Shown here: piece by piece, positions 3,013-63,270 of the stretch
Numbering within the stretch: position 1 is the stretch's first letter
How the letters are laid out: every line of letters begins with the position of its first letter
Source: Parcubacteria group bacterium Athens0714_12
GTDB taxonomy: Bacteria > Patescibacteriota > Patescibacteriia > UBA2591 > VMGY01
Reading direction: 5' to 3'
NCBI GenBank assembly: GCA_007378955.1
Contig: VMGY01000003.1
Coordinates: 26,264 to 90,263 of the forward strand
DNA length: 64,000 nt
Position numbers and translations under genes: made by a program
Notes under the pieces: generated by a model
Told to the model about the DNA's origin: nothing
Seen by the model: the letters and a program-made list of their open reading frames with translations, nothing else
The model's database searches: none

Positions 3013-3020
3013 TATCAATT

Positions 3021-4261: not shown

Positions 4262-4323
4262 GTTCTGAACCCAGCTCGCGTATCGCTTTAATTGGCGAAC
4301 AGCCAAACCATTGGGAGCTTCTT

Positions 4324-4367
<44 letters not shown>

Positions 4368-5545: not shown

Positions 5546-5761
5546 AATTAAACTTTATAATATATGGTTTAATTATACCATAGTACCACTAGATACTCCA
5601 GACTTTCCAGCATATAGCCAAATTTTACTAAGGCTAGCAAAACTAACCATAGGACGATTCATTTGTGTTAGCTCATGGTCGCCCATGAGATCGGACTATA
5701 TCATATCACCATCTCTGATGATTTCGGCGTATAGTCTCTGAGGATCCTCTTAATTTAAATT

Positions 5762-5875
5762 TTATTCAATCCATTCCCTGTCAGTAAAACTAGAAAGAAA
5801 ATAACCAAAATAAAATGGAATATTTTTAATAAGAGTTTCCTGCTGATTGTCCCCACTGGACATTTTTTTACTCAT
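5762..5875 (-). pseudogene. truncated remnant of a second intron homing-endonuclease gene (37 codons)
   Basis: MSKKMSSGDNQQETL... parallels the N-terminus of the 5063-5545 HE (MPSEKSSSADNQQERL...), then terminates; the DNA is a diverged duplicate. Confidence 0.45.
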
Positions 5876-6198
5876 TAATTTTGAGTAATGCCAGATACAC
5901 GGGATATTCCAGCATACAGCCGAATTTTATAACTACAATTGTCTCATAGTTATCGCCGGCGTTCATCAGCGCTTAAGTTCAAAGCTTTGCCCTGTAAACA
6001 GGGCTAACCTCTCCCCTTAACGTTCTGACACTGGCCAGGCATCAGCCCCTATACTTCAGCTTTCGCTTTTGCAGGGACCTAAGTTTTTGGTAAACAGTCA
6101 CATGAGATCTTTTACTGCGGGTCGCACAAGGCGACCAATGCTTATTCCGAAGTTACGCACGTTGTATTGCCGAGTTCCTTAACGAGAGTTCTCTCGTA

Positions 6199-6236
<38 letters not shown>

Positions 6237-7401
6237 ACGGTACGGATTTGCCAAACCTAACTCTTCAAAAATTTTCTGGGAAAGTTGCTCATTTGTATCG
6301 CCTTGATAAATCAAAACTTTTCGCCCTTCATTGGGAAAACCCTCAAAGGACAAATGTAAATCCAATAATACACACAAATTACAAACCTTCGTCTTTCTGA
6401 AAAAAATTTGGCAAAGGGTAGGAATATTAACCTACTGTCCATCGTCTACGCCATTCGGCCTCGACTTAGGACCGCCTAACCCTGGGATAATAATTATTGC
6501 CCAGGAAACCTTAGGTTTTCGGTGGTCTGGATTCTCACCAGACTTTTTGCTACTCATACCAACATTCTCTCTTCCATAACCTCCACCGACTCTCGCGGGT
6601 CGGCTTCAATGATTATGGAATGCTCCCCTACCAACCACTGCTACGCAGTGGTTTTACATCTTCGGTATCAAACTTGAGCCCCGGTAAATTTTCGGCGCAA
6701 CGCGACTTGACCAGTGAGCTGTTACGCTTTCTTTGAAAGATGGCTGCTTCTAAGCCAACTTCCTGGTTGTCATAGTTGAATCACTGCCTTTAACACTTAG
6801 TTTGAATTTTGGGACCTTAGATGGTAATCTGGGCTGTTTCCCTTTTGACTAATGGAGCTTAGCCCCCATAGTCTGACTCCAGTCGTATAATGTTGCCGGA
6901 ATTCGGAGTTTGGTTGAATTAAGTAGGCAAAGCCATCTTAACTCATTCAGTGCTCTACCTCCGGACATCACGACCAGGCTAGCCCTAAAGCTATTTCGGG
7001 GAGAACCAGCTATCACGAGGTTCGATTGGAATTTCACCCCTAACCACAACTCATCCCAAAGTATTGCACGACTTACGGGTTCGGGCCTCCCCCCGATTTT
7101 CATCGGGGTTCACCCTGGCCATGGCTAGCTCACCTCGCTTCGGGTCAAATATGTATTACCTTACATTAAATTAGTGAATTAATTATTATTTATAATCAAC
7201 TCACTAATTATAATGTACGCGCGCTATTAACACTTGGTTTCCCTTCGACTCCACTGTTTTAAGCAGTTTAGTCAAGCAACACACATAAACTCGTTGGTTC
7301 ATTCTTCAATAGGCACGCCGTCACCCCGACTTAACGTCAGGGCTCCGACTCCTTGTAAGCATATGGTTTCAGATTCTATTTCATCGCCCTCACCGGGCTA
7401 T

Positions 7402-7437
<36 letters not shown>

Positions 7438-7794
7438 ATGGCCAAAAGTATTTAGCCTTAGGTCATAGTCGACCTGGTTTCAAATAGGATTTCACGTGTC
7501 CTATTTTACTTGAGAAAAATTACTAGAAGCACAAAACACTTTTCATTTACAGGACTTTCACCTTCTATGGTTCCGCTTTCCAACGGATTCAATTAAGTAA
7601 GTTTTGATTAATATTTACTTCCTCCGGTTTTCCTAGTCCCGGAACATAATCCTCTCGCAACATCCTATAAAACATTTTAGCCTAGGAGCCTTACCTTTTA
7701 CTTCAAGTTCCGCCCGAAGGCAGACTTTCCATAAAAGTTAGGTTTTATAAGATTTAGGCTGTTCCCCGTTCGCTCGCCACTACTAGGGGAATGC

Positions 7795-8133
7795 AAGTAA
7801 CTAAACATTGGTAACTGATTTTGAGGGGGGAGATTTCTCCCCCTCGAATTTTTATAAAAAACGGGAAAATTTTATTTCTGTTCCTTCGCCGATGCTAAAA
7901 ATTTTATTAGCATCGCCATTTATAGAACCGCAAAAAGAGACATAAGCGTATTTCTGTTGTTTTTTCTCTTCCACTTTTATTATTTTCGCTCTTATTTTCT
8001 CTTTTTTATTTCTTATCTTTAAAAAAATTTTCATACTGCGATTCGATAAATCTTTTACTTTTATCATTAAGCCCTCCTTTTTTCGTTTTATAAAAATAAT
8101 TAATCCTCAAAATCAGCTACCAAAATTAGTTAC
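7795..8133 (-). other. intervening-sequence (IVS)-like insertion in 23S domain I: about 30-bp inverted-repeat stem enclosing an AT-rich loop with a 71-aa ORF (7852-8067)
   Basis: cctcaaaatcag(c/t)taccaa..ttagttac at 8104-8133 and inverted at 7795-7827; GGGGGAGAtttcTCCCCC hairpin at 7826-7845; flanked by conserved 23S blocks. Confidence 0.45.
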
Positions 8134-8722
8134 TATTATTTTTTTTCTTTTCCTCCGCTTACTGAGATGTTTCACTTCAGCGGGTTTGCTTCGTCAACCT
8201 ATGAATTCAGTTAACGATACTTTGGTTTTAAATCAAAGTGGGTTTCCCCATTCGGAAATCCCCGGGTCAAAGGTTGCTTGCCACCTTACCGAGGCTTATC
8301 GCAGGCTGCTACGTCCTTCATCGCCTTTTGGTCTCAAGGCATCCACCATATGCATTAAAATAACCGCAAGAATTATTGAAATACAATAATTCTTTAAACT
8401 TATATAATGCTCTTTATATTTTTTTGATATGCTTTTTAATTGTCAATGTTCTTTCCTTAACTTCCAGAGATAAGAATATATCCTTATCTTTGAAAACTAT
8501 GGTATTAAAAAAACCGCTTTTAAGCGGCTCTGGACACTACCTAAAATATCCTTAATTTAACCGCTTAGGATTGAAAGTTGTATTAACTGTCGCATAATTA
8601 TTTCTATCTTTAAATAATTAATTTAATTAATGCTTCTTATTATATCAATATCTTTCTCTCTTTTCAATACTCGAAAATGTGAAAGATATGTGGATAACTA
8701 AGGATTATTTTTAGTTAGTTAT

Positions 8723-8750: not shown

Positions 8751-8792
8751 TAGTCAATTTGAAATTATTAGTTATAAGTTATGTGTTGAGTC

Positions 8793-8883: not shown

Positions 8884-8912
8884 AACAACCGACAACTAAC
8901 AACTGATAACTA
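8884..8912. repeat. AACTAACAACT/GTTGTTAGTT heptamer-type repeat block between tRNA-Leu and tRNA-Gly (5' leader side of tRNA-Leu)
   Basis: caaccgacaactaacaactgataactaa. Confidence 0.5.
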
Positions 8913-8921
8913 AAATAAATT

Positions 8922-9975: not shown

Positions 9976-10066
9976 GCGAAATAACTAATAACTTACAACC
10001 TACAACTAACAACTCAATGATAAATTTTATTGTAAGTTGTAGGTTGTAAGTTGTGAGTTAATAAAT
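9976..10066. repeat. palindromic block of GTTGTAAGTTGTAGGTTGTAAGTT-type heptamer repeats (hairpin) in the leader of tRNA-Phe
   Basis: cttacaacctacaactaacaactcaa ... ttgtaagttgtaggttgtaagttgtgag are reverse complements of each other. Confidence 0.6.
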
Positions 10067-11672: not shown

Positions 11673-11870
11673 ATGTCTGTATATGGCGAAACAAAAATCT
11701 TGGCATGTATGTTAATTTCTTTCTTGATATCAATATTATCAATAATCGCGATGATATACTTATTCAAGCTGGCAATTTTTTCAACAATCATGTTTGCTCA
11801 TCTGATTTTTCTTTTTTCTTTTTTTATTGCTCTTCGCCGCGCGAGTAACAATAAAGCTCTCTCAGAATAA
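11673..11870 (+). CDS. small membrane protein (65 aa, two TM)
   Basis: AAGGAGGTG Shine-Dalgarno 7 nt upstream of ATG at 11673 (internal start of ORF-track ORF 11601-11870). Confidence 0.5.
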   Translation: MSVYGETKILACMLISFLISILSIIAMIYLFKLAIFSTIMFAHLIFLFSFFIALRRASNNKALSE

Positions 11871-13409
11871 AAGAGAGCTTTTTTCTTTTTCCAGATGTTT
11901 TTTTAAAAATTCAAATGCTTGTTTTTTACTTTTTACTCTTTTTGCCAATTGCTCTTCTCTTAAAATTTTTAATAATTCGCCGATTTGTTTACTTGGTTTT
12001 AATTTAAATTTTTTCATTATCTCATGGCCGTCTAAAATTGATTCAGGTAGTTTTTCTTTTTCTTTGCTCATCGCCTGCAAATTTTTTATTCTCTCTGCCA
12101 TTTTATAAAAATTGGTTAAATTTGTCTTGCCTTTATCAGGAATACTGGCGATCGCGTCAATAAAACCTAATTTTAATAAATCTTGACCATTAAATTTAGG
12201 ATTAAAAAAATATTTTTCCAAGGTGCTATTTTTTATTCCATCAACATTGTTGTTAAGAAAAAACATATGCGCTCTGACCAACCAGACAACTCTGTCTATG
12301 TCAATTTGAAATTCCTCGCTTGAAGAAAGCTTTAAACGTTCGCAAATTTTTTTAGCTAAATCAGCGCCAATCTGGTCATGGTCATTAAACCTGATTCTGT
12401 CAACAATGTCTTTTTTCGGCGTTTTTATCGTGTAGGGTTTGCCAATGTCATGAAAAATAATTCCCAAAATCAATTCTATCCCCGGCTTTTCACCGCCGAA
12501 TTCATTTTTAAATTCTTTTGAATTTAATTTTTCCAAAGCTAATTTAGTATGCGACCAAACATTGCCTTCTGAATGGAAATTTTTCGGCTGGGAACATTTT
12601 TTCATTTTTAAAAGTTCCGGCATTAAAACTTTAAAAGCGCCGCTTTGGTCATATAAATCAAAGGCCTTAACTGGATTCAAATAAAAAGCCTTTAAAAATT
12701 CTTTGGCGATAATTTCATAAGAAACAATTCTCTCTCCCTTGATTTCAGAATTTAATTTGGGAATAAACTTTTTAATCGCTGACCAAGTTTTATTTTCTAT
12801 TTTAAAATCTAATTGACAGGCAAATCTCAAAGCGCGAAGCATCCTTGAATAATCTTCTTTAAATCTTTCTTCTGGCTTGCCGACAGTTCTAATCACTTTT
12901 TTTTGTAAATCTTTTAGTCCGTTAAAAGAATCAATTAGTTGTTGTAAGTTGCGGGTTGTAAATTGCGGGTTATTTATTGCAAAGGCATTAATCGTAAAAT
13001 CTCTTCTGCTTAAATCTTCTTTAATCTCCAAATCGGGATTGCTCTGCACTTCCACATCCTTATAACCGCCGGTGCCAAAAGCATGCTCTTTTCTGGGCAA
13101 AGCAATATCCAAAGGTGTTCCTATTTTTTTACCTTTAGGCAAAAATTTAAAAACGCCGAAATTTTTACCAACCAAAAAAACTTTTCCTTCTTTAGTTAAA
13201 AAATTTTCCAAATCATTCGCGGAAACTTTTCTAACCACGAAATCATAATCCCCTTCATCCGGCAATCCCAACAAAGCATCCCTGACCGCGCCGCCAACCA
13301 AATAAACTTCGCTTTGGGAAAATTTTTTGTTCAATTTTTCGGCAAAATCCAAAAGACCTTCCTTTTCCAAACGTTTAATAAATTGAGAAATAATTTTTTG
13401 GCAATTCAT
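11862..13409 (-). CDS. cca: CCA-adding tRNA nucleotidyltransferase (Pol-beta-like head plus HD domain)
   Basis: GGAVRD..DxD nucleotidyltransferase motif and HD domain (FHDIGK). ORF-track N-terminal 37 codons are read-through of tRNA-Val; start reset to MNCQ at 13409. Confidence 0.8.
   Translation of the reverse strand: MNCQKIISQFIKRLEKEGLLDFAEKLNKKFSQSEVYLVGGAVRDALLGLPDEGDYDFVVRKVSANDLENFLTKEGKVFLVGKNFGVFKFLPKGKKIGTPLDIALPRKEHAFGTGGYKDVEVQSNPDLEIKEDLSRRDFTINAFAINNPQFTTRNLQQLIDSFNGLKDLQKKVIRTVGKPEERFKEDYSRMLRALRFACQLDFKIENKTWSAIKKFIPKLNSEIKGERIVSYEIIAKEFLKAFYLNPVKAFDLYDQSGAFKVLMPELLKMKKCSQPKNFHSEGNVWSHTKLALEKLNSKEFKNEFGGEKPGIELILGIIFHDIGKPYTIKTPKKDIVDRIRFNDHDQIGADLAKKICERLKLSSSEEFQIDIDRVVWLVRAHMFFLNNNVDGIKNSTLEKYFFNPKFNGQDLLKLGFIDAIASIPDKGKTNLTNFYKMAERIKNLQAMSKEKEKLPESILDGHEIMKKFKLKPSKQIGELLKILREEQLAKRVKSKKQAFEFLKKHLEKEKSSLLF
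12940..12975. repeat. GTTGTAAGTTGCGGGTTGTAAATTGCGGGTT 14-mer tandem repeat, antisense and in frame within cca
   Basis: Encodes NNPQFTTRNLQQ in cca; same motif family as the tRNA-leader repeats. Confidence 0.55.
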
Positions 13410-14716: not shown

Positions 14717-14737
14717 ATTTTTATATAAAAGTTTTAG

Positions 14738-14765
14738 GTTGTTAATTGTAAGTTGTGGGTTGTTA
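14738..14765. repeat. GTTGTTAATTGTAAGTTGTGGGTTGTTAGTT repeat immediately 5' of tRNA-Ala
   Basis: Same heptamer family as 9976-10066, in transcript orientation directly abutting the tRNA 5' end. Confidence 0.55.
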
Positions 14766-14842
14766 GTTATTTATTGGGCTGTTAGCTCAGCTGGCTAGAG
14801 CGCCTGCTTTGCAAGCAGGAGGTCACCGGTTCGAATCCGGTA
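14766..14842 (+). tRNA. tRNA-Ala (anticodon TGC), CCA encoded
   Basis: gggctgttagctcagctggctagagc..ttTGCaa..ttcgaat; 77 nt. Confidence 0.9.
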
Positions 14843-21034: not shown

Positions 21035-21270
21035 ATCAAACCCCAAATCACAAACAAATACCAAATTCTAATGACCAAAATTCAAAACTGTTTGGAATTT
21101 ACCTGCCCGACTTCGCCTTGACTGATTTTATCCTCTAAATTTTTTAAATTATTATAATTAGCGAAAACTATCAATCCTGTTTATTAGAAACGGCGAAGTC
21201 AAGGCGGGCGGGTAATTTGGGATTTTGAATTTGTTTGATATTTGTAATTTGAAATTTGGGATTTAAAATT
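21035..21270. repeat. about 235-bp inverted-repeat element: AT-rich AAATTCAAA/CCAAAT arms with a GC-rich core hairpin (cccgacttcgccttgac / gtcaaggcgggcggg)
   Basis: Arms 21040-21100 and 21211-21270 are reverse complements; core arms at 21098-21124 and 21191-21216. Confidence 0.5.
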
Positions 21271-21291
21271 TTATTAAATTAATTTAGTCGT

Positions 21292-26099: not shown

Positions 26100-26370
26100 G
26101 ATAAAAAAATGTCTAATTCCTAATTTCTAATGCCAAATTAATGCTCAATGCCAAAATGTCCAATCTTTAATTAATCTTATTCGGTTATTGGTCATTTAAT
26201 CGTTAAGATTTTTTATTAGAAATTAGAAATTTGACATTAGGTATTAAATAACTTTGAATTACGAAATAGGCTGAGTAGGGGGCGCGCTCATATCTTTTTT
26301 GCAGACGCGGCGATTAGTCCGCAGCGCAAAAAAGATATGAGCCCTAAATAATGAATTTCGTAATTCAAAC
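26100..26370. repeat. AT-rich inverted-repeat element (ctaatttctaatgccaaat arms) adjoining a nested GC-rich hairpin (26252-26370)
   Basis: attcctaatttctaatgccaaatt / aattagaaatttgacattaggtat inverted; ctttgaattacgaaat..atttcgtaattcaaac outer stem; gggggcgcgctcatatcttttttgc..gcaaaaaagatatgagccc inner stem. Confidence 0.5.
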
Positions 26371-36367: not shown

Positions 36368-36441
36368 ATGAAGTTATGAAATTCCAAATCTCAAATCACA
36401 AATTTCAAACAAATTCAAAATCCCAAATTCTAAATTCCAAA
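36368..36441. repeat. AT-rich inverted-repeat arm (aaattccaaatctcaaatcacaaatttcaaacaaattcaaaatcccaaatt), partner at 36805-36856
   Basis: Reverse complement of 36805-36850 agaatttgtgatttgtttggaatttggtgcttgaaatttggaattt. Confidence 0.55.
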
Positions 36442-36804
36442 CTACTTACTATTAGTCAAAATAGAATTAAAAATTTTAATAAATTCTGAGGCTTCTTGAA
36501 TTAAAAATTTACCTTCGTTGTTGCTACTTAAATTATTAGTATCAATAATTAATCTAAGCCAATAGCGACTTTCTTTTGATTCTTTCCTGGAAATTTTTAT
36601 TCTCATCATAAAGTCTTTTTTACTTAATGATTCATTCGCTTCAATATAGTTTGCCCCAACTGAACCACTGGCTCGAACTACTTGTCTAATTAACTCAATG
36701 TTTTCTACTGTTCTTACTAATTTTTTGCAAAATTCTATTACTCGTTTAGTAAAATTAAAAGTTCTTTCTTCTAAATCGTAATTTTGGTTTTGTATTTTGG
36801 TCAT
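36442..36804 (-). CDS. four-helix-bundle protein ('23S rRNA intervening-sequence protein' family)
   Basis: VRASGSVGANYIEANESLSKKDF..RISRKESKESRYWLRL matches the family signature (GANY.EA....S.KDF...S..E..E..YWL). Confidence 0.75.
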   Translation of the reverse strand: MTKIQNQNYDLEERTFNFTKRVIEFCKKLVRTVENIELIRQVVRASGSVGANYIEANESLSKKDFMMRIKISRKESKESRYWLRLIIDTNNLSSNNEGKFLIQEASEFIKIFNSILTNSK

Positions 36805-36856
36805 TAGAATTTGTGATTTGTTTGGAATTTGGTGCTTGAAATTTGGAATTTAATCT
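36805..36856. repeat. AT-rich inverted-repeat arm, partner of 36368-36441
   Basis: See 36368-36441. Confidence 0.55.
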
Positions 36857-39800
36857 TTACGGTATCACCACTATCCGCCCGTCAAACATTTGACCGCCGC
36901 AACCGGCTTGATAGCCGCCGTTATTGCACCAACCCCAATTATCTTGAATCTGAATTGCCGGCCTAAAAACGCAACAGCCGCCATTAGTAATCCCTAAAAC
37001 AGGGCAAACAGCCTGCCAGCCGGCTCCGCCAATCTCGCACCTATAACTATGATAATAATTGAAATAACCTTCTAAACAAGCTTCTGGGGTATGCCCAAAA
37101 TCCCGGCTGTCGCATTCTCCTATTGCCAAATGATTTTTATAAAATCCCGGGAAAGGCCCACTCGCGCTTCCGTCGCCCCAATTAATAATTATATTTCTAA
37201 TGGGCATTTGGTCTTTGTCTACCAAGCTGAAAAATTTAAGACTTGTCCTTATTCTGCCCCTCGCCAAAATATCCCCGCTGTTCTGATTATTGATCGTCAT
37301 TCTATAATTCGCGTCTTGATAGCATTTTCCGCTTGACGGGTCGCAATCCAAAACGCCAACGCTTCTTATTTTTAAAGCCGATATTTGAGGCGCTCTGGAA
37401 GCATTGCTGGCGGTAAAAGTCACATCCCAAACATCGCTATTATTTACAGGCACGTATCCATTGCCAATATTATATTGATAAATTTGGTAAGACCGGGCAA
37501 AAATATCATGTAAACTTGATTTATTATTTTGATAATCATTATCCCCGATATAAAACATTTCCTGCTGAGAGCATTTTGGAAAATTCTCGTGGTCAATAAA
37601 AATAGTTTCTCTGTCCACCGCCCGATTAGGCAAAGCGGCAAAAAGAGGAGAGCAAGTACTGCTATAATTATAGCCAAGAGAATTAGTAAAATTACTTGTC
37701 TGCCAAACCCTGTCAGTCCAAGCTTTATTTTCCGCCCCTTGGGTAACTCCCGCTATTTCAGCGCATCTTTCGCCAGTACTTAAAATATTGCAATCTCCTT
37801 GGCTTAAATTAGGAATTATGGTTAAAGTGGCGGAAATATAACAGCCATTGCCGCCAATAACTTCGCAATCCCATTCGCATCTGTCATGCAAGCCTCTCCG
37901 ATATGTGCGGGTATTTCTCTCCACAAAGCCAAAGGGACAGCCATCGCATTCCCCCGAATCTTCATGATAACTTGCTCTCCAATCATAATTAAGTTCTTCT
38001 TTCTCCAAGCAATAAAACGGACCCTCGCCCAAACCTAATCCTCCGGCATTAAACCCGGCTTCCACATATTGATTATATAAATCAGAAGCGCCGACAATCA
38101 AATCAATAGGCATCCAGGTCAAACAGGCGAATTGGTCGCTTTTGCCATTGATGGTTTTACTCTTGTCTCTTTCCAAGCAATAGCCCTCCCAGCCGATATA
38201 ATTAACTTTTTTCTTAACTGGCGCGCAATGGCCATCTCCATCTCGGCAATCTTGAACTGTCACTTCTTGCCCGCAGAATTTTCCGTCTTCTTCTCCCCCC
38301 TGGCAAATAGAATCAGGAATAGTTAAATTATTTCCGGCAAAATATTTTTCTTCGCCACTGCCGTAAGACACTTTTTGATAATGACAATCGCAAGCCTCTA
38401 CTTCGCCATCGCCCGCGTCTTGGCAATAATTCGCGTTGGCAAATTCCGTGATTACTCTGGTGTTATTAGAAAAAGGGCTTTCTTTTTGAGGATACCCGCG
38501 GCAGGAAGAAGATAGCGCGCCGCCATTAGGCAAATTTCCATCTATGCCCGCCACGCACCGCTGGCTGTAGCAAAGCCCGTTTCTCCCTCCGATGTTGCAA
38601 GCCGAACCATTGGCGCTTCCCGACGGGCAATCGCCCAAAATATAAACTAATTTATTTTCCGGATTATCCAAACTGCCAAAATTAATTGAACTTAATAAAT
38701 GAATTTGATATTTATCAAACAAGGAATATCCTGAAAAATCCAAAGCTTCCCATTGACCTGTGTTCAAAGAAGCATAAACATCTTGAGTCAGAGGCTGAAG
38801 CAAATTAGGGTCATTTACTTCATTACTGCAACTAAATCCCCGCCCAAAACCTAATGACTGGTCGCAAAGAATCAAACCGCCGTCTTCGCAAACTTCTTTA
38901 TACTTGCCGATGCGGGAATCAAAAACCATATGCGTATTTTCGCAAGTAAGCCATTGCCCGCATTCTCTGTCTCTGAGCACTTTTAAAAGATTATCTTCGC
39001 CTTCTCTCGCTTGGCCATTGAAATTAATTCCCATTTTTTCTAATTTAACGCAACTATCTTTCCAATCTTCCTTAGAACAAAAAGAGAGTTTGTTATTATC
39101 CATGTAATAATAAGTTTCTCCTGTTAAATTTTCCGTATTTTCCTGATATGGCCTGAATTGCGTGCAGCCGCTGTATTTTGAAGGGCATAAGCCGGCCCAG
39201 CCAATATCAGGGTATCTATCTTCATCAATGTCACAATTTAAATTATTTACTTTAGTGAACCAGCCGGAAGTAATGACTCCGTTCAGATTAATATTTTCTT
39301 TAAACTCGCAAACTCTTTCGCCCGGGTCTTTAAAATAAGCCGTTGCTCCATTTGCTTCATATGCTTCGCATTTATCCTCGCTATTTTGGCAAAGTATCGG
39401 ACTGATTATTTTTTCCGGAGTAGAAATATATTGGTCGGGATTATTTTTTAAATAAACTGTTTGCCAAATTTGCCCATTGCTTGAATCTAATTTTAAATTC
39501 CCATTTGCGTCCAAACTCGGAAGGCCGAATACCCTGCAACCTTTATCATCGCTATGGCAATAATTCTTGGAATTAACCACGACATAAACCAAAGCATCGC
39601 TTTGTACGGTGACATCATCTATATTATCTCCTCCCTGATTAAAGCTTTCTTCATAAGGAGAAGATGAATTTCGGGTGTCTATTAAAAGTTCACAGCCTGC
39701 TTTGTCTTCTTCGCAAAGGCGGGAAAATGATTTTAAATAATATCTATTTCCTTTTTTATCTTTATATTCCTCGCAATTAATTTGCGCTTTTGTGATTGGC

Positions 39801-44208: not shown

Positions 44209-45021
44209 TTATTTTAATTTCTCGCTAAGCCTGATCCAATCTTCCACGCTCAAATCCTGCGCCCTGATTTTCGGATTAAAATTCAATTTTTTAAATATTT
44301 CTTTTATCTCTTCATTGTTCATTTTTAATCCCGTGGCTAAGTTATTGTGTAATTGCTTCCGCCTGTTTGAAAAACCTATTTTTACTATCTTAAAAAAAAC
44401 TTTTTCATCTATTCTTGATTCTTGGCTTTTAATTTTTAATCTGATAATCGCGCTGTCCACTTTTGGCTCGGGATAAAAACTTTTTTTAGAGACCAAGCTG
44501 ATAATCTCCGGTTGGCTGTAAAACTGGACTGCCACGGAAAGCAAAGACATTTTACCCGGCCTTGCCGCGATTCTTTCGGCAACTTCTTTTTGAACTAATA
44601 AAACCATTTCTTCGGGCTTTATTTTGTTTTCTAAAAATTTCCGCAAAAAATTGCCGGTAATAGAATAAGGAATATTAGCGACAATCTTAAAGTTATGAGT
44701 TATAAGTTGCTGGTTGTAAGTTAATTTCAAAATGTCTCCTTCAATAATCTCCACATCTTTATAATCCTTCAAAATATCTTTCAAGGCTCTGATTATATTT
44801 TTATCAATTTCCACGGCCATGACTTTTTTAACTCTTTTGGCTAATGCTTGCGTTAAAATACCAAACCCCGGGCCAACTTCCAAAATTAAATCATCTTTTT
44901 TTAAATCAGCCGCTTCAATTATTTTATCTAAAATTTTATTGTCAATTAAAAAATTCTGCCCTTTCCAAGACTTGGGCAGAAGATTATATTTTTGGCAAAG
45001 AAATTTAATATCATTTAACAT
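44209..45021 (-). CDS. rsmA: 16S rRNA (adenine1518/1519-N6)-dimethyltransferase
   Basis: LEVGPGFGILT SAM motif, NIPYSIT, full KsgA architecture. Confidence 0.85.
   Translation of the reverse strand: MLNDIKFLCQKYNLLPKSWKGQNFLIDNKILDKIIEAADLKKDDLILEVGPGFGILTQALAKRVKKVMAVEIDKNIIRALKDILKDYKDVEIIEGDILKLTYNQQLITHNFKIVANIPYSITGNFLRKFLENKIKPEEMVLLVQKEVAERIAARPGKMSLLSVAVQFYSQPEIISLVSKKSFYPEPKVDSAIIRLKIKSQESRIDEKVFFKIVKIGFSNRRKQLHNNLATGLKMNNEEIKEIFKKLNFNPKIRAQDLSVEDWIRLSEKLK
44690..44725. repeat. AAGTTATGAGTTATAAGTTGCTGGTTGTAAGTT repeat antisense and in frame inside rsmA
   Basis: Encodes LTYNQQLITHNF; same motif family as the tRNA-leader repeats. Confidence 0.5.
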
Positions 45022-46248: not shown

Positions 46249-48714
46249 TTAGTTCGCGACGATGTTTATTAATCTGTTGTTAATATAAATTATCTTTTTT
46301 ATTTCTCTGTTTTCAAGCCATTTTTTAATTTTTTCCCTTTCCAAGACCATTTTTTTAACTTCTTCTTCTGAAATATTTATTTTTATTTCCATTTTATCCC
46401 TTACCTTGCTATTAATCTGAATTATCAATTCTATTGTTTCATCAATAATTAAATCTGGATTGTAATCAGGCCATTTTTCTTCAAAAATAGTTTTCTCTTC
46501 CGGCAATCCTTTGAGCTGATGCCATAATTCTTCACTTAAATGAGGCGCGAGCGGCGCTAAAAGTAAAATTAAAATTTCCAAATCATGAGTTGTAAGTTGT
46601 AAGTTGTAAGTTGTAAGTTTATTTACGTATTCCATTAAACAAGCGATCATGGTATTGAATTTAAATTTTTCTATATCTTCGCTCACTTTTTTAATTGTCT
46701 GATGCCTTAATTTCTCTATTTCTAAATTTGGTCGCTGGTTGTTGGTCGCGAGTTGTTGGCTGACTAAATCCCAAACTTTATTTAAAAATCTATAAACCCC
46801 AATCACGCCTCTATCCTGCCATTCAGCGTCTTGTTCCGGCGGCGACATAAAAAGTTCATACAAACGCATTGTGTCCGCGCCGTATTTTATAAAAAATTCA
46901 TTCGGATTGACGACATTGCCTTTTGATTTGCTCATTTTCTCTCCGTTTCTATAAATCATTCCTTGGTTGAATAATTTTAAAAATGGCTCTTCAAATTCTA
47001 TTATTCCCAAATCAAACATTATTTTGCTAAAAAAACGGGCGTAAAGCAAATGCAAAACCGCGTGTTCTATGCCGCCGACATATAAGTCTGTTGGCAGCCA
47101 ATATTTAATTTTTTTCTTTTCAAAAATTTCTTCTGAATTTTTCGGGTCAACATACCTTAAATAATACCAAGCCGAGTCAACAAAAGTATCCATAGTATCT
47201 GTTTCTCTTTTCGCTTCAGCGCCGCATTTAGGACATTTTGTTTTTACAAATTTTTCGGCTTTTGCTAAAGGGGATTTTTCGCCTAAAGGCTTAAAATCTT
47301 CAATTTCCGGCAAAACGAGCGGCAAATCGCTTTCAAGTACAGGAATTTCACCGCAATGCTCGCAATAAATAATCGGTATTGGCACGCCCCAGTATCTTTG
47401 CCGTGAAATAAGCCAATCCCTTAATTTATATTTTTTAGTCCCAAAGCCAATGCCTTTATCTTCCAGCCATTTGGTCATTTCTTCCTGCGCCCTTTCGGAG
47501 GATAAACCATTAAATTTTTCCGATTCAATCAAAACGCCGTCTTCTTCAAAAGCGCCGTTTTCAATAGTTGACCTGCCATCTTCTGATTTAATCACTTCAA
47601 TAATTTCCAAGCTATGCTTTTCCGCGAAAAAATAATCTCTTTGGTCATGCGCGGGCACGGCCATAATCGCGCCTGTGCCGTATTCAGCCAAAACATAATC
47701 GCCGATATAAACAGGAACTTGTTTCTGATTAAAAGGATTTAGCGCGTAAGCGCCGGTAAAAACTCCGGTTTTTTCTTTTTCCTCCGACATTCTTTCTATT
47801 TCTGTTTTTTCTTTCGCTTGCTTGATATATTCTTCAACTTCTTTTTTCCGGCTCTCGGCAGTTAGAGATTCCACCAAAGGATGTTCCGGCGATAAAACCG
47901 CGTAAGTCATTCCGAAAACCGTATCAACGCGCGTGGTATAAACTCTGATTACCTCTTCTTTTTGTCCTCCCTTTTCATCCAAAATCGGCATTTCAAATTC
48001 CACGCCATAGCTTCGGCCAATCCAATTTCTTTGCATAATTTTTACTTTTTCCGGCCAATCCACCAAATCCAAATCTTCAATCAAACGGTCGGCGTATTGA
48101 GTAATTTTTAAAAACCATTGATTAAGTTCTTTTTTTGTAATTTCAGAACAACATCTTTCGCACTTTCCATCCTTAACCTGCTCATTTGCCAAAACAGTCT
48201 GGCAGGAAGGGCACCAATTAACCAAAGCCATTTTTTTATAAGCCAATCCTTTTTTATAAAATTGCAGAAAAAGCCATTGAGTCCATTTATAATATTCCGG
48301 CTGCGAAGTATTGACTTCTTTTTGCCAATCATAAAGATAACCGGCATTTTTTAATTGTTCTTTGATGATGGAAATATTTTTTTCCGTGCTGATTCTGGGA
48401 TGAACGCCGGTTTTTAAAGCATAATTCTCCGCCGGTAATCCGAAAGCGTCCCAACCCATGGGATGCAGGACATTATATCCTTCCATTAATCTTTTTCTGG
48501 CAATCACATCGCTGTAAGTATAGCCGCGCATATGCCCGACATGAAGGCCTTCGCCGGAAGGATAAGGAAACATATCCAAACAATAAAACTTTGATTTTTT
48601 ATTATCCTCTGAAGTTTTATTAATTCCTATTTTATTCCATATCGCCTGCCATTTTTTTTCAATTTTTTGAGCTTCGTATTTCACCCCGTTAGAAATATTT
48701 TCTTTTTTAGACAT
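46249..48714 (-). CDS. leuS: leucyl-tRNA synthetase
   Basis: HMGH (HVGHMRGY) and KMSKS motifs, CP1 editing domain. Confidence 0.9.
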   Translation of the reverse strand: MSKKENISNGVKYEAQKIEKKWQAIWNKIGINKTSEDNKKSKFYCLDMFPYPSGEGLHVGHMRGYTYSDVIARKRLMEGYNVLHPMGWDAFGLPAENYALKTGVHPRISTEKNISIIKEQLKNAGYLYDWQKEVNTSQPEYYKWTQWLFLQFYKKGLAYKKMALVNWCPSCQTVLANEQVKDGKCERCCSEITKKELNQWFLKITQYADRLIEDLDLVDWPEKVKIMQRNWIGRSYGVEFEMPILDEKGGQKEEVIRVYTTRVDTVFGMTYAVLSPEHPLVESLTAESRKKEVEEYIKQAKEKTEIERMSEEKEKTGVFTGAYALNPFNQKQVPVYIGDYVLAEYGTGAIMAVPAHDQRDYFFAEKHSLEIIEVIKSEDGRSTIENGAFEEDGVLIESEKFNGLSSERAQEEMTKWLEDKGIGFGTKKYKLRDWLISRQRYWGVPIPIIYCEHCGEIPVLESDLPLVLPEIEDFKPLGEKSPLAKAEKFVKTKCPKCGAEAKRETDTMDTFVDSAWYYLRYVDPKNSEEIFEKKKIKYWLPTDLYVGGIEHAVLHLLYARFFSKIMFDLGIIEFEEPFLKLFNQGMIYRNGEKMSKSKGNVVNPNEFFIKYGADTMRLYELFMSPPEQDAEWQDRGVIGVYRFLNKVWDLVSQQLATNNQRPNLEIEKLRHQTIKKVSEDIEKFKFNTMIACLMEYVNKLTTYNLQLTTHDLEILILLLAPLAPHLSEELWHQLKGLPEEKTIFEEKWPDYNPDLIIDETIELIIQINSKVRDKMEIKINISEEEVKKMVLEREKIKKWLENREIKKIIYINNRLINIVAN
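46588..46619. repeat. (AGTTGTA) x4.5 perfect heptamer tandem repeat, antisense and in frame inside leuS; a second 14-mer pair lies at 46729-46764
   Basis: agttgtaagttgtaagttgtaagttgtaagtt encodes LTTYNLQLTTH; ggtcgctggttgttggtcgcgagttgttgg encodes QQLATNNQRP. Confidence 0.6.
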
Positions 48715-48968: not shown

Positions 48969-50009
48969 ATGGTTAATCCGTTTATTTCTAAAAGAGTAAT
49001 TTTTCCTCCAAGCGAACAAAAAAAATTTATTATTGAAAATAAAAAAACTCTTGATTTATCAGATGAAAAACTGGCTTATTTATTAAAAATCAACCATCGG
49101 ACATTAACTAACTGGAAACGAGAAAAATTTTCTATTTCATTAAAAGCAGTTAAAATTATTTTAAAAAAAACTGATGGGAAAATGCCAAAAAATGTGGAAA
49201 TTAAGGAGGCTTTTTGGTATGCAAACAAAGGTGCTAAATTAGGCGGATTGACTGTATATAAAAAATATGGGAAAATAGGCGGCGATCCAGAATATAGAAA
49301 AAAGAAATGGTATGAATGGTGGGAAAAAATCGGAAAATTTAATCCAAATGAATATTTTGTAGCCAAAAAAATTGTTATGCCTCAAAAAAATACGGATTTA
49401 GCTGAATTCATTGGGATTATGATAGGAGATGGCGGGATTACCAAAAATCAAATAACTGTAAGTCTTAATTATAAAACTGATAAACTTTACAGTATTTTTG
49501 TAAAAAATCTTATTAGAAAACTTTTTAAAATAAATCCGAGCATTTATATCAGAAAAAATCAATCCTTAACTAATATTGTTGTTTCACGAAAACGTTTAGT
49601 ATTATTTTGTAAATCTTTGGGTTTAAAAATTGGCGATAAATTAAAACAAAATTTAGATATTCCTCAATGGATTAAAAAAAATAAATCTTTCAAAATTTTC
49701 TGCTTAAGGGGCTTGATGGACACTGACGGTTGTATATTTAATGAATGCCATAAAATTAATGAAAAAAAATATTGCTATCATAGATTATCTTTTGTAAGTC
49801 ATTCAAAACAACTTCGTTCCTCAGTCTTTAAAATATTAGAAGAATTAGATTTTTCTCCAAAAATTCGCAATAATAGAAGTGTGCAATTAGAAAGTCGAAA
49901 AGATGTTATAAAATATTTTAATTTAATAAGCACTAATAATCCAAAACATAAGAAACGTTTTAAATATTTTTTAGGAGGGGTCGGGAGTGGTTGTCCCAAG
50001 CGGTCTTGA
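48969..50009 (+). CDS. free-standing LAGLIDADG homing endonuclease with N-terminal HTH-like domain; 3' end overlaps tRNA-Ser
   Basis: Two LAGLIDADG motifs: GIMIGDGG and LRGLMDTDGC. Confidence 0.75.
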   Translation: MVNPFISKRVIFPPSEQKKFIIENKKTLDLSDEKLAYLLKINHRTLTNWKREKFSISLKAVKIILKKTDGKMPKNVEIKEAFWYANKGAKLGGLTVYKKYGKIGGDPEYRKKKWYEWWEKIGKFNPNEYFVAKKIVMPQKNTDLAEFIGIMIGDGGITKNQITVSLNYKTDKLYSIFVKNLIRKLFKINPSIYIRKNQSLTNIVVSRKRLVLFCKSLGLKIGDKLKQNLDIPQWIKKNKSFKIFCLRGLMDTDGCIFNECHKINEKKYCYHRLSFVSHSKQLRSSVFKILEELDFSPKIRNNRSVQLESRKDVIKYFNLISTNNPKHKKRFKYFLGGVGSGCPKRS

Positions 50010-50062
50010 AAACCGCTAGGGCTGCAAGGCCCTCGTGGGTTCGAATCCCACCCCCTCCGCCA
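49974..50062 (+). tRNA. tRNA-Ser (anticodon TGA), long variable arm, CCA encoded
   Basis: ggagggg/cccctcc acceptor; loop ctTGAaa; variable arm tagggctgcaaggccctc. Confidence 0.8.
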
Positions 50063-53902: not shown

Positions 53903-53940
53903 AAACAACTTATAACTGATAACTAACAACTGATAACAAT
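53903..53940. repeat. AACTTATAACTGATAACTAACAACTGATAACAAT repeat abutting the 5' end of tRNA-Ile
   Basis: Same family as 8884-8912, 9976-10066 and 14738-14765. Confidence 0.55.
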
Positions 53941-54123
53941 AAGATAACAAAAAAAATTGGCTCTGGCAAGACCAATTTTCTATTTTGACAACTAAAAAGT
54001 GATTGTAAGAATGCCTATTGTATTTAAACGAAGTTAATCAAAGATTAAACTTTAGCTTTTTATTTAAATTAAACAAAAAACTATCGACAACGGCAATTAT
54101 AAATTGCCGCCTTTTTCTCCCTA

Positions 54124-55660
<1,537 letters not shown>

Positions 55661-55794
55661 AAAAAATAATTAGTTTAAAAAACTAATTATCACAAAAAAA
55701 TAGACATTCTTACTTTTGCAAAATTCTCGCAAATTTTGCAAAACACAATCACTTTCTAATTGTCAAAGTACTTTTTCCATTTCTACATTTCTAT

Positions 55795-55839: not shown

Positions 55840-56568
55840 TTATTTTCTTTTGATTTTTTTGCGTCCTTCTCGCCAGTCCTGAATTTTTTTATGGTCGCCG
55901 GAAAGCAGAATTTTAGGGACTTTGTGTTTTAAATTTTTGTTAAACAAAAAAATTTCAGGCCTGGTATATTGCGGATATTCCAGAGTAACTTTTAAATTTT
56001 TACTCTTAAATTTTGACTGGTTAAAACTCTCTTCTTTTAAAGATTCTTGATTGCCTAAAACTCCGGGAATTAATCTCGTCACCGCGTCAATAATAACCAT
56101 CGCCCCTAATTCGCCGCCGCTTAAAACATAATCGCCGATGGAAATTTCTTCGTCTATTAATTTTTTCACCCTTTCATCCACTCCTTCATAATGGCCGCAA
56201 ATAAAAATTATTCTGTCTAATTTAGAATATTTTTCAGCCGTCTTTTGATTAAAAGTTTTGCCTCTGGGGCTAAGCAAAATAATTTTTTGCTTATTTTTTC
56301 GGCCGGCGAATTTTACCTCCTTTTTTTTAACTGCTTCTAATGCCTGATAAATCGGTTCTATTTTCATCACCATGCCCGGTCCGCCGCCATAAGGTTTATC
56401 ATCAACTTTTTTATGTTTATCATTAGTATAATCTCTTATATTATATTCCTTAATAACAATCAATCCTTTTTTTTGAGCTCTTTTAATAATGCTCAAATTA
56501 AAATAAGAATCAAAAGCAGAAGGAAAAATTGTCAGGATATCAAATTTCATAATTATATTTGAAAACAA
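55840..56568 (-). CDS. trmD: tRNA (guanine37-N1)-methyltransferase
   Basis: SPOUT knot; [14 protein letters not shown] and [26 protein letters not shown] motifs. Confidence 0.9.
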
Positions 56569-60127: not shown

Positions 60128-60814
60128 TTACCATTTTTTCTTTTTTAAAGCATTTTCCGCCGCTTTTACTTGCGCTTCCTGCTTGCTCATTCCCTCCCCT
60201 GAAGCGATTAATTTATCTTCTAAAAATACTCCTATTTTAAAATATTTTGCATGGTCGGGACCGCTTTCTTCCAAAACATTGTAAATGGGCGTAATCTTAA
60301 ATTTTTCTTGAGATATTTCCTGGAATTTGGTTTTCGGGTCTATGTGAAGCTCATGTTTTAAAATATGCGGGAGCTTAAAAATCAGTTTTTTTTCAATAAA
60401 ATCAAAAGTCTTTTTCAATCCCTGGTCTAAAAAAATCGCCCCCACCAGGGCTTCAAAACCATCGGCTAAAATATATTCTCTGGCCTTGCCCTTATCTTTT
60501 GCCTCTCCCTTGCTAAGATAAAGATACTGGCCCAAATCCAAATCTTTGGCTAAAACAGAAAGCGTTTTGGCATTAACCAAGGCGGCCCGCCAATTAGTTA
60601 AATCTCCTTCTGGATTTTTATAATTTTTATAAAGATATTCCGTCACAATCAATTCCAAAACCGCGTCGCCTAAAAATTCCAATCTTTCATTATGTTCCAA
60701 ATGGAAATTGGGATGCTCGTTCAAATATGAGCGATGGACTAAAGATTGGCTTAATAAATTTTTGTCTTTAAATTTTAATCCTAAAATTTTTTCTAATTTG
60801 GAAAAATCTTTCAT
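60128..60814 (-). CDS. rnc: ribonuclease III
   Basis: ERLEFLGDAVLEL RNase III signature and C-terminal dsRBD. Confidence 0.9.
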   Translation of the reverse strand: MKDFSKLEKILGLKFKDKNLLSQSLVHRSYLNEHPNFHLEHNERLEFLGDAVLELIVTEYLYKNYKNPEGDLTNWRAALVNAKTLSVLAKDLDLGQYLYLSKGEAKDKGKAREYILADGFEALVGAIFLDQGLKKTFDFIEKKLIFKLPHILKHELHIDPKTKFQEISQEKFKITPIYNVLEESGPDHAKYFKIGVFLEDKLIASGEGMSKQEAQVKAAENALKKKKW

Positions 60815-61378: not shown

Positions 61379-61603
61379 TTATTTATTTTCTTCTTTTTTG
61401 TTTTTTTTCGCTTTTGAATCTTTTTTTAATTTCAATTTCAAAATTTCTCTGCCGGCGTAAACGCCGCAAAAAGCGCAAGCATGATAAGGCAAAGCCGCTT
61501 TCTTGCATTTAGGGCAAAAAATAACTCTTACTTTTTTTAAAGCATGAGTGAACGCTCTTTTTCTTTTTTCGCTTCTTGGTCTTTTTTTGCTTGGTAAAGC
61601 CAT
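61379..61603 (-). CDS. rpmF: 50S ribosomal protein L32
   Basis: Basic N-terminus ...RSEKRKRAFTHAL plus CPKC...CAFCG zinc ribbon. Confidence 0.75.
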   Translation of the reverse strand: MALPSKKRPRSEKRKRAFTHALKKVRVIFCPKCKKAALPYHACAFCGVYAGREILKLKLKKDSKAKKNKKEENK

Positions 61604-61914
61604 ACGCTAAATTTATTTCATAAATTTTAAAATCCTAAATCCTAATTTCTAAATCCTAAACAAATTTTAAACTTCGCCGGTAGGTTTTTGCATTCCCATA
61701 GGATACATTTTATTATTTTTAATCATAAAAATTAAATCATTAAATATCTTACTTTTTAATATAGTCTATTTTAAATTTTAAAGCAAGTAAATTCTCTGTC
61801 CCCAGACTTTCCCCAGCTTATGCACAAAATAATTTTACTTAGTGTGTTTGTAGTATTTCTTATCTGTGTTATAATCTTTATTACATCCATATCTCTATTC
61901 CCTAATTTACTTTT
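61604..61914. promoter_or_regulatory. candidate replication origin / dnaA promoter region
   Basis: AT-rich divergent intergenic region between rpmF (-) and dnaA (+); DnaA-box-like TTATGCACA (61818-61826) and TTATCTGTG; tandem aaatcctaaat repeats at 61630-61665. Confidence 0.35.
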
Positions 61915-63270
61915 ATGATGACCAAAGAAGAACTTTGGCAAGCTATTTTAGGCGACCTTGAACTTTCTCTCAGTAAGGCCAACTTTACGACATGGTTTAA
62001 AAAAACTTTCATTTCTTTAGTGGAAGACGACCATATAGTAATTAGCGTGCCTAATGATTTTACTAAAACTTGGCTGGAAAAAAAATACCATAAAGCGATC
62101 TTGGAAACTCTTCAAAATTTGACTGACGATAAAATAAAAAAAATTATTTACAAAATAGAAGTAAAGGCAATTGCTAACGCGGCAAATTTAGAAACAAGCC
62201 CGATGGCGGCCAGCGTAAAAGTTGAGACCAGGCATAAAATAAATGAATTTGGACTGAATCCGCAATACAGCTTTTCCCGTTTTGTGGTCGGAAAAAATAA
62301 TGAATTAGCCCATGCCGCCTGCCAGCATGTGGCTAAAAGTCCCGGCGAAAAATACAATCCTTTATTTATTTACAGCGGCGTTGGTTTGGGGAAAACCCAT
62401 TTAATGCAAGCAGTGGGGCATCAAATTATAGAAAAATTTCGCAAGAAAAAAATTCTATACGCAAGCTGTGAAAAATTTACCAATGATTACATCCAGGCCG
62501 TCAGGGAAGGCAACGCGAAAGAATTTAAAAATCTTTACCGCAATGTAGATCTTCTATTAATTGACGATATCCAATTTATGACCGGCAAAGAAGGAACGCA
62601 AGAAGAATTCTTTCATACCTTTAATGAATTGCATCAAAAAAATAAACAAATTGTGATTACTTCCGACAGACCGCCAAAAGCCATCCCTGGCTTGGAAGAG
62701 CGTTTAAGTTCCAGATTTGGCTGGGGAATGATTACTGATATTTCCAAGCCGGATTTAGAAATGAGAACGGCTATTTTCAGGTCAAAATGCCAAGAAAAAA
62801 ACTACGCGCTCACTGAAGACATCGCTAATTATGTCGCTTCATACATTCAAAACAATATTCGCGAATTAGAAGGAGCTTTAAATAAAATAATCGCTTTTCA
62901 TGAACTGAATAACACCATACCCACGATTGATTCCGTCAAAGCAATTATTTCCAATTTAATATCGCAACCGCGGCAAGGAGCGACCACGCCCAGACAATTA
63001 ATAAAACTAATCTCGGAATTTTATGAAATAAAATTAGAAGATTTATTGGGCGTAAGGAGGACAAAAACTTTAGCCCTGCCCCGGCAAATAGCCATGTATT
63101 TATTAAGAACCGAATTAAACACTTCTTATCCCGCCATTGGTCAGGAATTGGGAAACAGAGACCATACGACCGCCATCCACGCTTGCAATAAAATCAAAAA
63201 AGAAATTGAGAATGAAAGCAGAATCAAGCAAGACATAGAAATGATCAAGCAGCGCTTATACGCGATGTAA
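61915..63270 (+). CDS. dnaA: chromosomal replication initiator DnaA
   Basis: AAA+ Walker A GVGLGKTHL, DnaA box-binding domain IV (LPRQIAMYLLR..HTT). Confidence 0.9.
   Translation: MMTKEELWQAILGDLELSLSKANFTTWFKKTFISLVEDDHIVISVPNDFTKTWLEKKYHKAILETLQNLTDDKIKKIIYKIEVKAIANAANLETSPMAASVKVETRHKINEFGLNPQYSFSRFVVGKNNELAHAACQHVAKSPGEKYNPLFIYSGVGLGKTHLMQAVGHQIIEKFRKKKILYASCEKFTNDYIQAVREGNAKEFKNLYRNVDLLLIDDIQFMTGKEGTQEEFFHTFNELHQKNKQIVITSDRPPKAIPGLEERLSSRFGWGMITDISKPDLEMRTAIFRSKCQEKNYALTEDIANYVASYIQNNIRELEGALNKIIAFHELNNTIPTIDSVKAIISNLISQPRQGATTPRQLIKLISEFYEIKLEDLLGVRRTKTLALPRQIAMYLLRTELNTSYPAIGQELGNRDHTTAIHACNKIKKEIENESRIKQDIEMIKQRLYAM

Follow-up and report, generated by a model that had tools for sequence, protein, structure and literature searches.

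How does DNA built from tandem 7-nt units come to lie, in frame, within genes for essential enzymes? This question is raised by a 64,000-nt stretch of contig VMGY01000003.1 (positions 26,264 to 90,263 of the forward strand; assembly GCA_007378955.1) of Parcubacteria group bacterium Athens0714_12, an ultra-small bacterium of the Candidate Phyla Radiation (CPR; Patescibacteria). We refer to the whole stretch as the window and count positions from its first letter. In the window, leuS, cca, and rsmA (ksgA) carry short heptamer arrays that proved to be lineage-specific in-frame repeats located in variable loops. We judge that these coding blocks are probably tolerated in-frame passengers of a genome-wide heptamer repeat dynamic acting at the level of DNA, a reading that we favor with some reserve. 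What is new relative to known heptamer repeats is the dominant unit, the inverted pairs that flank tRNA genes, the placement in internal loops of essential enzymes, and the phylum. The initial annotation of this DNA is partly supported: the blocks are not like Rickettsia palindromic elements (RPEs), are not demonstrably antisense signals, and are not always length-neutral.

Four arrays lie within the three genes (Table 1), and the reading frame is unbroken across all of them. Tandem Repeats Finder reports leuS array a at 46588-46619 with a period of 7, 4.6 copies, and a 100% match to the unit AGTTGTA. It reports leuS array b at 46728-46759 (period 14, 2.3 copies, 88% match), the cca array at 12941-12971 (period 14, 2.2 copies, 94% match), and the rsmA array at 44690-44708 (period 7, 2.7 copies, 83% match), the last being the weakest of the four. 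The suspicion that such repeats exceed chance was well founded: a scan of the window for a GTTG core at 7-nt spacing, with 3 units and at most 1 mismatch, recovered 8 arrays, versus 0.06 expected from the mean of 100 first-order Markov shuffles, no one of which yielded more than 1. Lag-autocorrelation of the window shows enrichment of periods 7 and 14 and of no others. All of the coding blocks were found by the one core scan and belong to a single repeat family, (RGTTRYN)n, which we call family A. Translation of the gene strand gives the peptides that had been read from the blocks, among them VSQQLATNNQRP for leuS array b. According to Pfam matches, the three genes encode LeuS, a CCA-adding/poly(A) polymerase-family enzyme, and RsmA/KsgA. 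A CPR/Patescibacteria MAG (metagenome-assembled genome), Parcubacteria group bacterium Athens1014_10, has a LeuS protein 100% identical to the one coded in the window. The start of cca was taken at Met38 of its open reading frame (ORF) because the upstream part of the ORF overlaps tRNA-Val(gac).

Table 1. Host genes, family-A arrays, and the RNase III gene in the window
Feature	Position	Strand	Sequence or remark	Peptide coded
leuS	46249..48714	-	821 aa	
leuS array a	46588..46619	-	+ strand (AGTTGTA)x4.6, perfect; gene strand (TACAACT)n	LTTYNLQLTT (LeuS aa 700-709)
leuS array b	46728..46764	-	14-nt unit, alternating heptamers GGTTGTT/GGTCGCK, ~2.3 copies	SQQLATNNQRP
cca	11862..13409	-	start placed at ORF Met38	
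cca array	12940..12975	-	14-nt unit GGTTGTA + ARTTGCG, 2.2 copies	NNPQFTTRNLQ
rsmA (ksgA)	44209..45021	-	270 aa	
rsmA array, degenerate	44690..44725	-	gene strand AACTTAC/AACCAGC/AACTTAT/AACTCAT	LTYNQQLITHN
tRNA-Leu(taa) 5' leader array	8884..8913	-	AGTTATC AGTTGTT AGTTGTC GGTTGTT, tRNA sense	
tRNA-Leu(taa) 3' trailer array	8765..8792	-	complementary, ACACATAACTTATAACTAAT; pairs with the leader	
tRNA-Phe 5' leader array	9983..10014	-		
tRNA-Val(tac) 3' trailer array	10030..10059	-	(ACAACTT)n; pairs with the tRNA-Phe leader	
tRNA-Ala 5' leader array	14729..14768	+		
tRNA-Ile 5' leader array	53907..53950	-	ATCAGTT/AGTTATC units; downstream of the 16S rRNA gene	
rnc (RNase III)	60128..60814	-	candidate cutter of array-built helices (putative role)	

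All four coding arrays are read in the orientation opposite to the GTTG strand. The GTTG strand contains stop codons in three of three frames for leuS array a and for rsmA, in two of three for cca, and in one of three for leuS array b. Since three or more 7-nt units run through all three frames, only the A/C-rich orientation is readable. The observation that the blocks are antisense to their hosts holds as a description of strand in every host, but this is not a functional orientation: stop codons of the GTTG strand dictate it, and it is mostly a survival or coding filter and by itself no sign of function. MacGregor (2015) reasoned likewise for TAACTGA repeats. A leuS gene from Nealsonbacteria (locus L119, 10688-10724) carries an array of AATTTCT in which the sole unit placing TAA in frame reads AATTCCC, and this unit is a direct footprint of selection against an in-frame stop.

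The blocks do occupy variable loops, as had been proposed: alignments to solved LeuS, KsgA, and CCA/A-adding structures (PDB) show gaps or variable stretches at these sites. In LeuS, the two arrays coincide with alignment gaps in the anticodon-binding domain, array b in the first variable loop, after RFLNKVW, and array a in the second. The CCA array lies in the loop that follows the RRDFTINA motif, the length of which varies among solved CCA/A-adding enzymes. The RsmA array lies between the DILK strand and (F)KIVANIPY, where the stretch up to VANIPY aligns with a longer, unrelated stretch of B. subtilis KsgA.

Comparison with relatives indicates that the peptides are lineage-specific and not conserved. 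The nearest LeuS relative (P0002, 72% identical) has LFKNQDKISLDY at the site of the window's LTTYNLQLTTHD, with shared conserved flanks and equal length, and its DNA at this loop matches a 7-nt periodicity at only 9 of 21 positions, compared with 21 of 21 in the window. It thus lacks both the array peptide and the period. The proposal that the blocks cause no net length change holds for this second leuS loop only (0 aa relative to P0002) and fails for the other three: the first leuS loop is about 3 aa shorter than that of P0002, the cca loop is 7 aa longer (21 nt, or 3 units) than in the syntenic relative L212, and the rsmA loop is 3 aa longer than in P0209, which is 70% identical. The rsmA loop of P0209 reads (AATTTAC)2(AATTTTC)2 in the same orientation as in the window. 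One mismatch separates this array from AACTTAC in the window, which makes the degenerate rsmA array probably the older and the perfect leuS array probably the younger. For six CPR LeuS proteins, clusters at 90% identity contain loop indels of 5, 10, and 18 aa, none of which is a clean 7-aa step at an array.

Outside of genes, every family-A member in the window (the 4 other core-scan matches plus 2 weaker arrays) adjoins a tRNA gene. Arrays of the form (AGTTRTN)n constitute the 5' leaders of tRNA-Leu(taa), tRNA-Phe, tRNA-Ala, and tRNA-Ile, and complementary (NACAACT)n arrays constitute the 3' trailers of both tRNA-Val(tac) and tRNA-Leu(taa). Two of the leaders, those of tRNA-Leu(taa) and tRNA-Ile, include exact AGTTATC units. 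Per base pair, family A is ~6-fold denser in spacers than in coding sequence. Folding predicts that the tRNA-Leu(taa) leader and trailer form a helix that lengthens the acceptor stem (z = -4.8), and that a hairpin of ~30 bp forms between tRNA-Val and tRNA-Phe (z = -9.1). The tRNA-Ala and tRNA-Ile leader arrays have no partner in cis. The syntenic relative L211 retains the order tRNA-Val(gac)-cca ... rplS-tRNA-Leu-tRNA-Val and has no family-A arrays at those tRNAs, so that deep conservation of the tRNA-flanking arrays is not supported. In L211, a separate periodic run of ~7-8 nt precedes tRNA-Leu(gag) at 6352-6420, reading AAAATGC AAAAGTGC AAACGC AAAAGCGC and then the complement TTTTGCGTCTTTGCGTTT. 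It may be general in this clade for tRNA leaders to consist of short repeats that are specific to a lineage.

Period-7 arrays recur throughout the clade. In 155 kb comprising the window and loci of Nealsonbacteria, Kuenenbacteria, and three syntenic relatives, we counted 19 period-7 arrays, compared with 0-2 at any other period between 4 and 12. Roughly half of these 19 lie within genes: four in leuS, and others in tsaD, PFOR, a MiaB-like gene, rsmA, and ogt. As a background control, we used 1.03 Mb of mixed bacterial leuS loci drawn from the metagenome LeuS-alignment matches listed, which are 43-52% identical and mostly from outside the clade. Among these, 12 period-7 arrays were found, fewer than at periods 6, 9, and 12, making such arrays ~10-fold denser in the clade. 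The same signal is evident at the protein level. Among 120 CPR homologues of LeuS, lag-7 amino-acid runs number 106, versus 13-41 at other lags, and cluster at five sites that include both window sites; among 119 homologues of RsmA they number 44, versus 0-19, and lie mostly in the loop that holds the window array. DNA of relatives confirms independent arrays with units unlike those of the window: three in leuS and one in tsaD of Nealsonbacteria, those of a Kuenenbacteria locus (in PFOR, a MiaB-like gene, and xerC), and the rsmA array of P0209. In L119 the units differ between loci of one genome. The loop peptides differ by lineage (KFQIPNS, ISNLKSQ, NYELRIT, LSVISYQ, LQITNYK, and others). Judged from these sequences, what recurs across CPR loops is a DNA periodicity and not a peptide.

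The heptamer itself is widespread. More than 118 species-representative genomes, spread over many phyla, contain exact (AGTTGTA)3, and its loci, among the matches listed, hold 71 other perfect heptamer arrays, compared with at most 7 each for periods 5, 6, 8, 9, and 11. Its in-frame hosts elsewhere, again among the matches listed, include UvrC, PrmC (three times), enolase, a GT4 glycosyltransferase, a DegT aminotransferase, a prepilin peptidase, and methyltransferases. This diversity argues against a specificity for RNA-handling genes, and, together with the arrays in PFOR and XerC of relatives, led us to demote the idea of an RNA-gene regulon.

The closest known kind of element is the bacterial heptanucleotide simple sequence repeat (SSR), especially TAACTGA/TCAGTTA, which MacGregor (2015) described in Beggiatoaceae, cyanobacteria, and Bacteroidetes (PMC4679880). 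The window arrays are head-to-tail 7-nt copies, 4.6 of them perfect, and exceed chance; relatives differ by 7 aa in the cca loop and in some RsmA loops, and the four assemblies of this population are identical. Units of the coding arrays (AGTTGTA, GGTTGTT, AGTTGCG) lie 1-3 mismatches from AGTTATC, of which the reverse complement of TAACTGA, TCAGTTA, is a rotation and which is present in the window's tRNA leaders. TAACTGA repeats are mostly intergenic, just upstream of start codons, and have stops in all frames of the forward orientation; their few copies in ORFs are all reversed and code LSVISYQ, and a post-transcriptional role has been proposed for them (PMC4679880). Likewise, loop 2 of Nealsonbacteria LeuS codes exactly LSVISYR/LSVISYQ, and in the window one orientation holds stops and all four gene copies are confined to the other. 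The differences are that the dominant unit here, AGTTGTA, departs at 2 of 7 positions, that non-coding family-A copies adjoin tRNA genes, often as inverted pairs, and are not placed upstream of start codons, that coding copies are internal to essential enzymes and not at protein termini or in hypothetical ORFs, and that the host phylum is absent from the list in PMC4679880. According to Mrazek, Guo & Shah (2007), as summarized in PMC4679880, heptanucleotides are the commonest unit of long SSRs in most prokaryotic genomes, among units of 5-11 nt, and polymerase slippage was proposed as the cause. The dominance of period 7 here agrees with that summary; the same source leads one to expect units that are multiples of 3 within genes, whereas here 7-nt units lie in frame in essential genes. 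Borg tandem repeats, which create disordered regions in proteins (PMC9879509), are similarly perfect, independently arising, fast-evolving, and tolerated in ORFs, to which they add low-complexity peptide, but they belong to archaeal extrachromosomal elements and differ in scale. Our literature search found no paper linking heptamer or tandem repeats with Patescibacteria/CPR.

Short tandemly repeated repetitive (STRR) heptamers of cyanobacteria, which Mazel et al. reportedly described in 1990, are said to be dispersed tandem heptamers, mainly intergenic, with several unit families per genome. The window arrays resemble them in being dispersed and in falling into several unit families, and differ from them in unit (CCCCAGT, TTGGTCA, and CAACAGT for STRR) and in phylum. 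We know of no description of STRR as tRNA-flanking helices or as loop-coding sequence in housekeeping genes. Stems in rRNA and around intervening sequences (IVSs) are cut by RNase III, and the non-coding arrays resemble these in forming long helices around tRNAs and around an ORF of family PF05635, cleavage here being putative; unlike such stems, the coding arrays have no cis partner in their host genes. Two other classes were considered and rejected. Phase-variable contingency loci do not fit, the hosts being essential housekeeping enzymes with frames intact in all assemblies. Neither does a diversity-generating retroelement: the ORFs of the window scanned against Pfam hold no reverse-transcriptase domain, the Avd-like PF05635 ORF standing alone among them, and the repeats are tandem, with no pair of template and variable repeats.

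Under the passenger reading, the coding blocks are in-frame copies of (RGTTRYN)n, a family that is the CPR counterpart of the heptamer SSRs of other bacteria. The repeat process would be most active and least constrained in spacers, where it would generate and homogenize arrays; the tRNA flanks are the denser sites of the family, with the G/U-rich orientation serving as 5' leaders and the A/C-rich orientation as 3' trailers, and leader and trailer together are predicted to form long helices that are plausible substrates for RNase III or other processing. Slippage in non-coding DNA is a candidate source of arrays, and template switching or array-to-array conversion may occasionally write one into a gene. 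Such an array would persist only if it passed three filters: a stop-free orientation, coding polar T/N/Q/L/Y peptides; a surface loop tolerating any sequence; and a net change in length divisible by three (+21 nt in cca, 0 in leuS loop 2). Because these filters account for the in-gene arrays as survivors, the coded peptides would be by-products, neutral at the protein level, and no antisense signal is required. The 7 additional residues in cca fit a three-unit step. For the perfect leuS array, whose net length change is zero, the suggested origin is a pre-formed array, brought in by template switching or conversion.

Several points weigh against this reading. Steps of 7 nt would shift the frame of an essential gene, so slippage alone does not explain the leuS array; with 4.6 perfect units and no net length change, it would need a putative replacement-type event. 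Periodic DNA recurs in the same RsmA and LeuS loops at 50-70% identity, and selection on the nucleic acid could be responsible instead. Each of the three host genes of the window encodes an enzyme that works on tRNA or rRNA. Genes of this kind make up ~20% of the window's coding length by summed ORF lengths, which puts the chance at ~0.01 in a test of host function that was framed post hoc. Finally, no copy-number polymorphism was found across the four assemblies, and so no direct sign of ongoing repeat dynamics.

An RNA-level function in trans is the likeliest of the rivals, though we regard it as doubtful. Here the in-frame A/C-rich arrays of mRNAs would act in trans, pairing with G/U-rich pre-tRNA leader fragments released by RNase P or being read by a heptamer-reading protein, and would couple the stability or translation of mRNAs for tRNA and rRNA enzymes to tRNA precursor flux, possibly via duplex cleavage by RNase III. 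Pairing of the four mRNA arrays with the leader of tRNA-Ala or tRNA-Phe is predicted at -27 to -43 kcal/mol, compared with -12 to -16 kcal/mol for shuffled leaders. The unpartnered tRNA-Ala and tRNA-Ile leaders, the tRNA/rRNA enzymes as hosts (with tsaD and the MiaB-like gene in relatives), the presence of rnc in the window, and the retention of arrays in the same loops across CPR agree with this model. Complementarity, however, follows automatically from one repeat family combined with a stop-codon filter; the leader that pairs most strongly, that of tRNA-Phe, is locked in its cis hairpin; and the diversity of hosts elsewhere (UvrC, enolase, glycosyltransferase, PFOR, XerC), the bare tRNA flanks of L211, and the differing units within the L119 genome weigh against it too. 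A bolder version, which we think unlikely, is a genome-wide RNA-RNA pairing code in which (AGUUGUN)n leader fragments would pair with the leuS, cca, and rsmA mRNA arrays, recruit RNase III or block ribosomes, and so tie enzyme output to tRNA precursor flux, the units being kept matched by array-to-array conversion.

The remaining alternatives carry far less weight. If the loops needed a heptad-like or polar low-complexity peptide, the DNA periodicity would be secondary, and since three 7-nt units make 7 codons, 7-residue periodic and mostly polar peptides in exposed loops do result; but one and the same loop holds wholly different peptides by lineage (LQLTTYN, LSVISYQ, NSKFKI, or none in P0002), the units are identical at the nucleotide level with zero synonymous variation, and the same units occur in non-coding tRNA flanks, so we consider selection on the protein quite improbable. 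An antisense promoter or an array of DNA-binding sites tolerated in coding sequence, as the initial annotation had entertained, is just as improbable in our view. By eye, TTGTAA within the unit resembles a -35 hexamer, and arrays in the same orientation precede tRNA genes. Yet a scan of 46300-47000 limited to canonical promoters, thus leaving non-canonical CPR promoters outside it, found no sigma-70-type site (-35/-10 with 16-18 nt spacing) at the arrays; the tRNA arrays stop 3-8 nt short of the mature 5' end, which leaves too little room for a -10 element and leader; and the orientation within genes is set by stop codons. The analogy to RPEs, drawn from the same source, fares worse still. RPEs (Ogata et al., in 2000) are reportedly palindromes of 100-150 bp that add 30-50 residues, and the window blocks share with them dispersed in-frame copies in several essential genes, at surface regions that tolerate them. 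The blocks are, however, direct tandems of 32-37 nt with a net change of -3 to +7 residues; they form no hairpin, no inverted-repeat arm lies over any array within the host genes, there is no target-site duplication and there are no conserved termini, net insertion at leuS loop 2 is zero, and the blocks are not simple insertions. An RPE-like mobile element inserting in frame is therefore highly improbable. An assembly or sequencing artefact, such as a collapsed or chimeric repeat, might be feared for low-complexity sequence from short-read metagenome assembly, but is very unlikely, to the point of being negligible, because the two NCBI MAGs agree in the leuS region, at 100% identity, with each other, with an ENA re-assembly, and with a Logan assembly made from an SRA run. 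The frame is intact through all four arrays, and arrays of this sort turn up in many assemblies of unrelated origin.

If the passenger reading is true, 7-nt microsatellites repeatedly overwrite the same surface loops in universal enzymes (LeuS, RsmA, CCA, PrmC, UvrC, and others) even in streamlined CPR genomes, and heptamer arrays are a source of lineage-specific peptide novelty. Array-bearing loops will mislead alignments, phylogenies, and domain-boundary calls for CPR proteins. Perfect yet without net length change, the leuS array points to an as yet undescribed DNA mechanism of the replacement type, and the inverted arrays flanking tRNA genes suggest an unstudied mode of pre-tRNA and operon processing in CPR. 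Should the doubtful trans pairing be true instead, coding-embedded microsatellites would form a post-transcriptional network of a new kind, in a genome that has few classical regulators.

Side observations concern the host genes and a gene of similar function. In the sister MAG GCA_007376655.1 (contig VMGP01000002.1), 65 nt inside rsmA are missing (window 44811-44875), bordered by GGCCA direct repeats, and the gene is split into ORFs of 50 and 191 aa; this gap reflects either an error of assembly or a real allele of the population in which an 'essential' gene carries a deletion. The LeuS of a syntenic relative (L129, 3907-7473) is 1,188 aa long and has Abhydrolase/Ser_hydrolase (alpha/beta-hydrolase) Pfam matches amid the synthetase domains, which may represent an unusual domain insertion in an aminoacyl-tRNA synthetase. 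Within trmD, a tRNA-modification gene, a 14-nt pair at 55988-56018 (ACTCTTAAATTTTG, 2.2 copies, 88% match) is possibly one more in-frame array, belonging to a different family.

Heptamer families other than A, with the units GGAATTT/AAATTCC, AATTTCT, and AAATCCT, occupy spacers between protein genes, often as inverted pairs, and (GGAATTT)n sits just upstream of start codons. Such pairs lie at 21040-21271, where (AAATYCC)n and (GGRATTT)n surround a G+C-rich palindromic core (CGCCCGCCTTGACTTCGCC...GGCGAAGTCGGGCAGG), and at 26113-26240, where (AATTTCT)n faces (AGAAATT)n. The PF05635 ORF (36368-36860, minus strand; 120 aa), which codes a 23S-rRNA-intervening-sequence protein with an Avd-like four-helix bundle, also lies between inverted heptamer arrays, with (AAATTCC)n upstream and (GGAATTT/GATTTGR)n downstream; the flanks are predicted to pair as a stem of ~55 bp (z = -3.6). 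This ORF with its inverted arrays is found again at another position in a syntenic relative (L128, 11806-12371), and because its position differs, the module resembles a cassette outside rRNA that is mobile or is excised by RNase III.

The rRNA genes of the window are unlinked: the 16S gene lies ~46 kb from the 23S gene and is followed only by tRNA-Ile. The 23S gene (4210-8365; the other coordinates for the rRNA and LAGLIDADG region are 3020-3137, 54125-55666, 3656-4144, and 5063-5545) measures 4,156 nt, compared with a 2,925-nt model, and contains a LAGLIDADG ORF, with a second such ORF between the 23S and 5S genes. Unlinked rRNA genes, an enlarged 23S gene, and LAGLIDADG ORFs are typical CPR hallmarks. 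A further ORF of 346 aa, matching LAGLIDADG_3 (48969-50009), overlaps by ~35 nt at its 3' end a locus (49974-50062) that is tRNA-Ser(tga) according to ARAGORN and tRNA-Sec according to Rfam (53 bits; gathering score 47). Near the right end of the window (61400-63270), the 560-bp spacer before dnaA (61915-63270, plus strand) holds an (AAATCCT)n array at 61630-61660. Both GC and AT skew switch sign in this spacer, which is therefore probably the site of the replication origin, and almost all genes to its left are co-oriented with replication.

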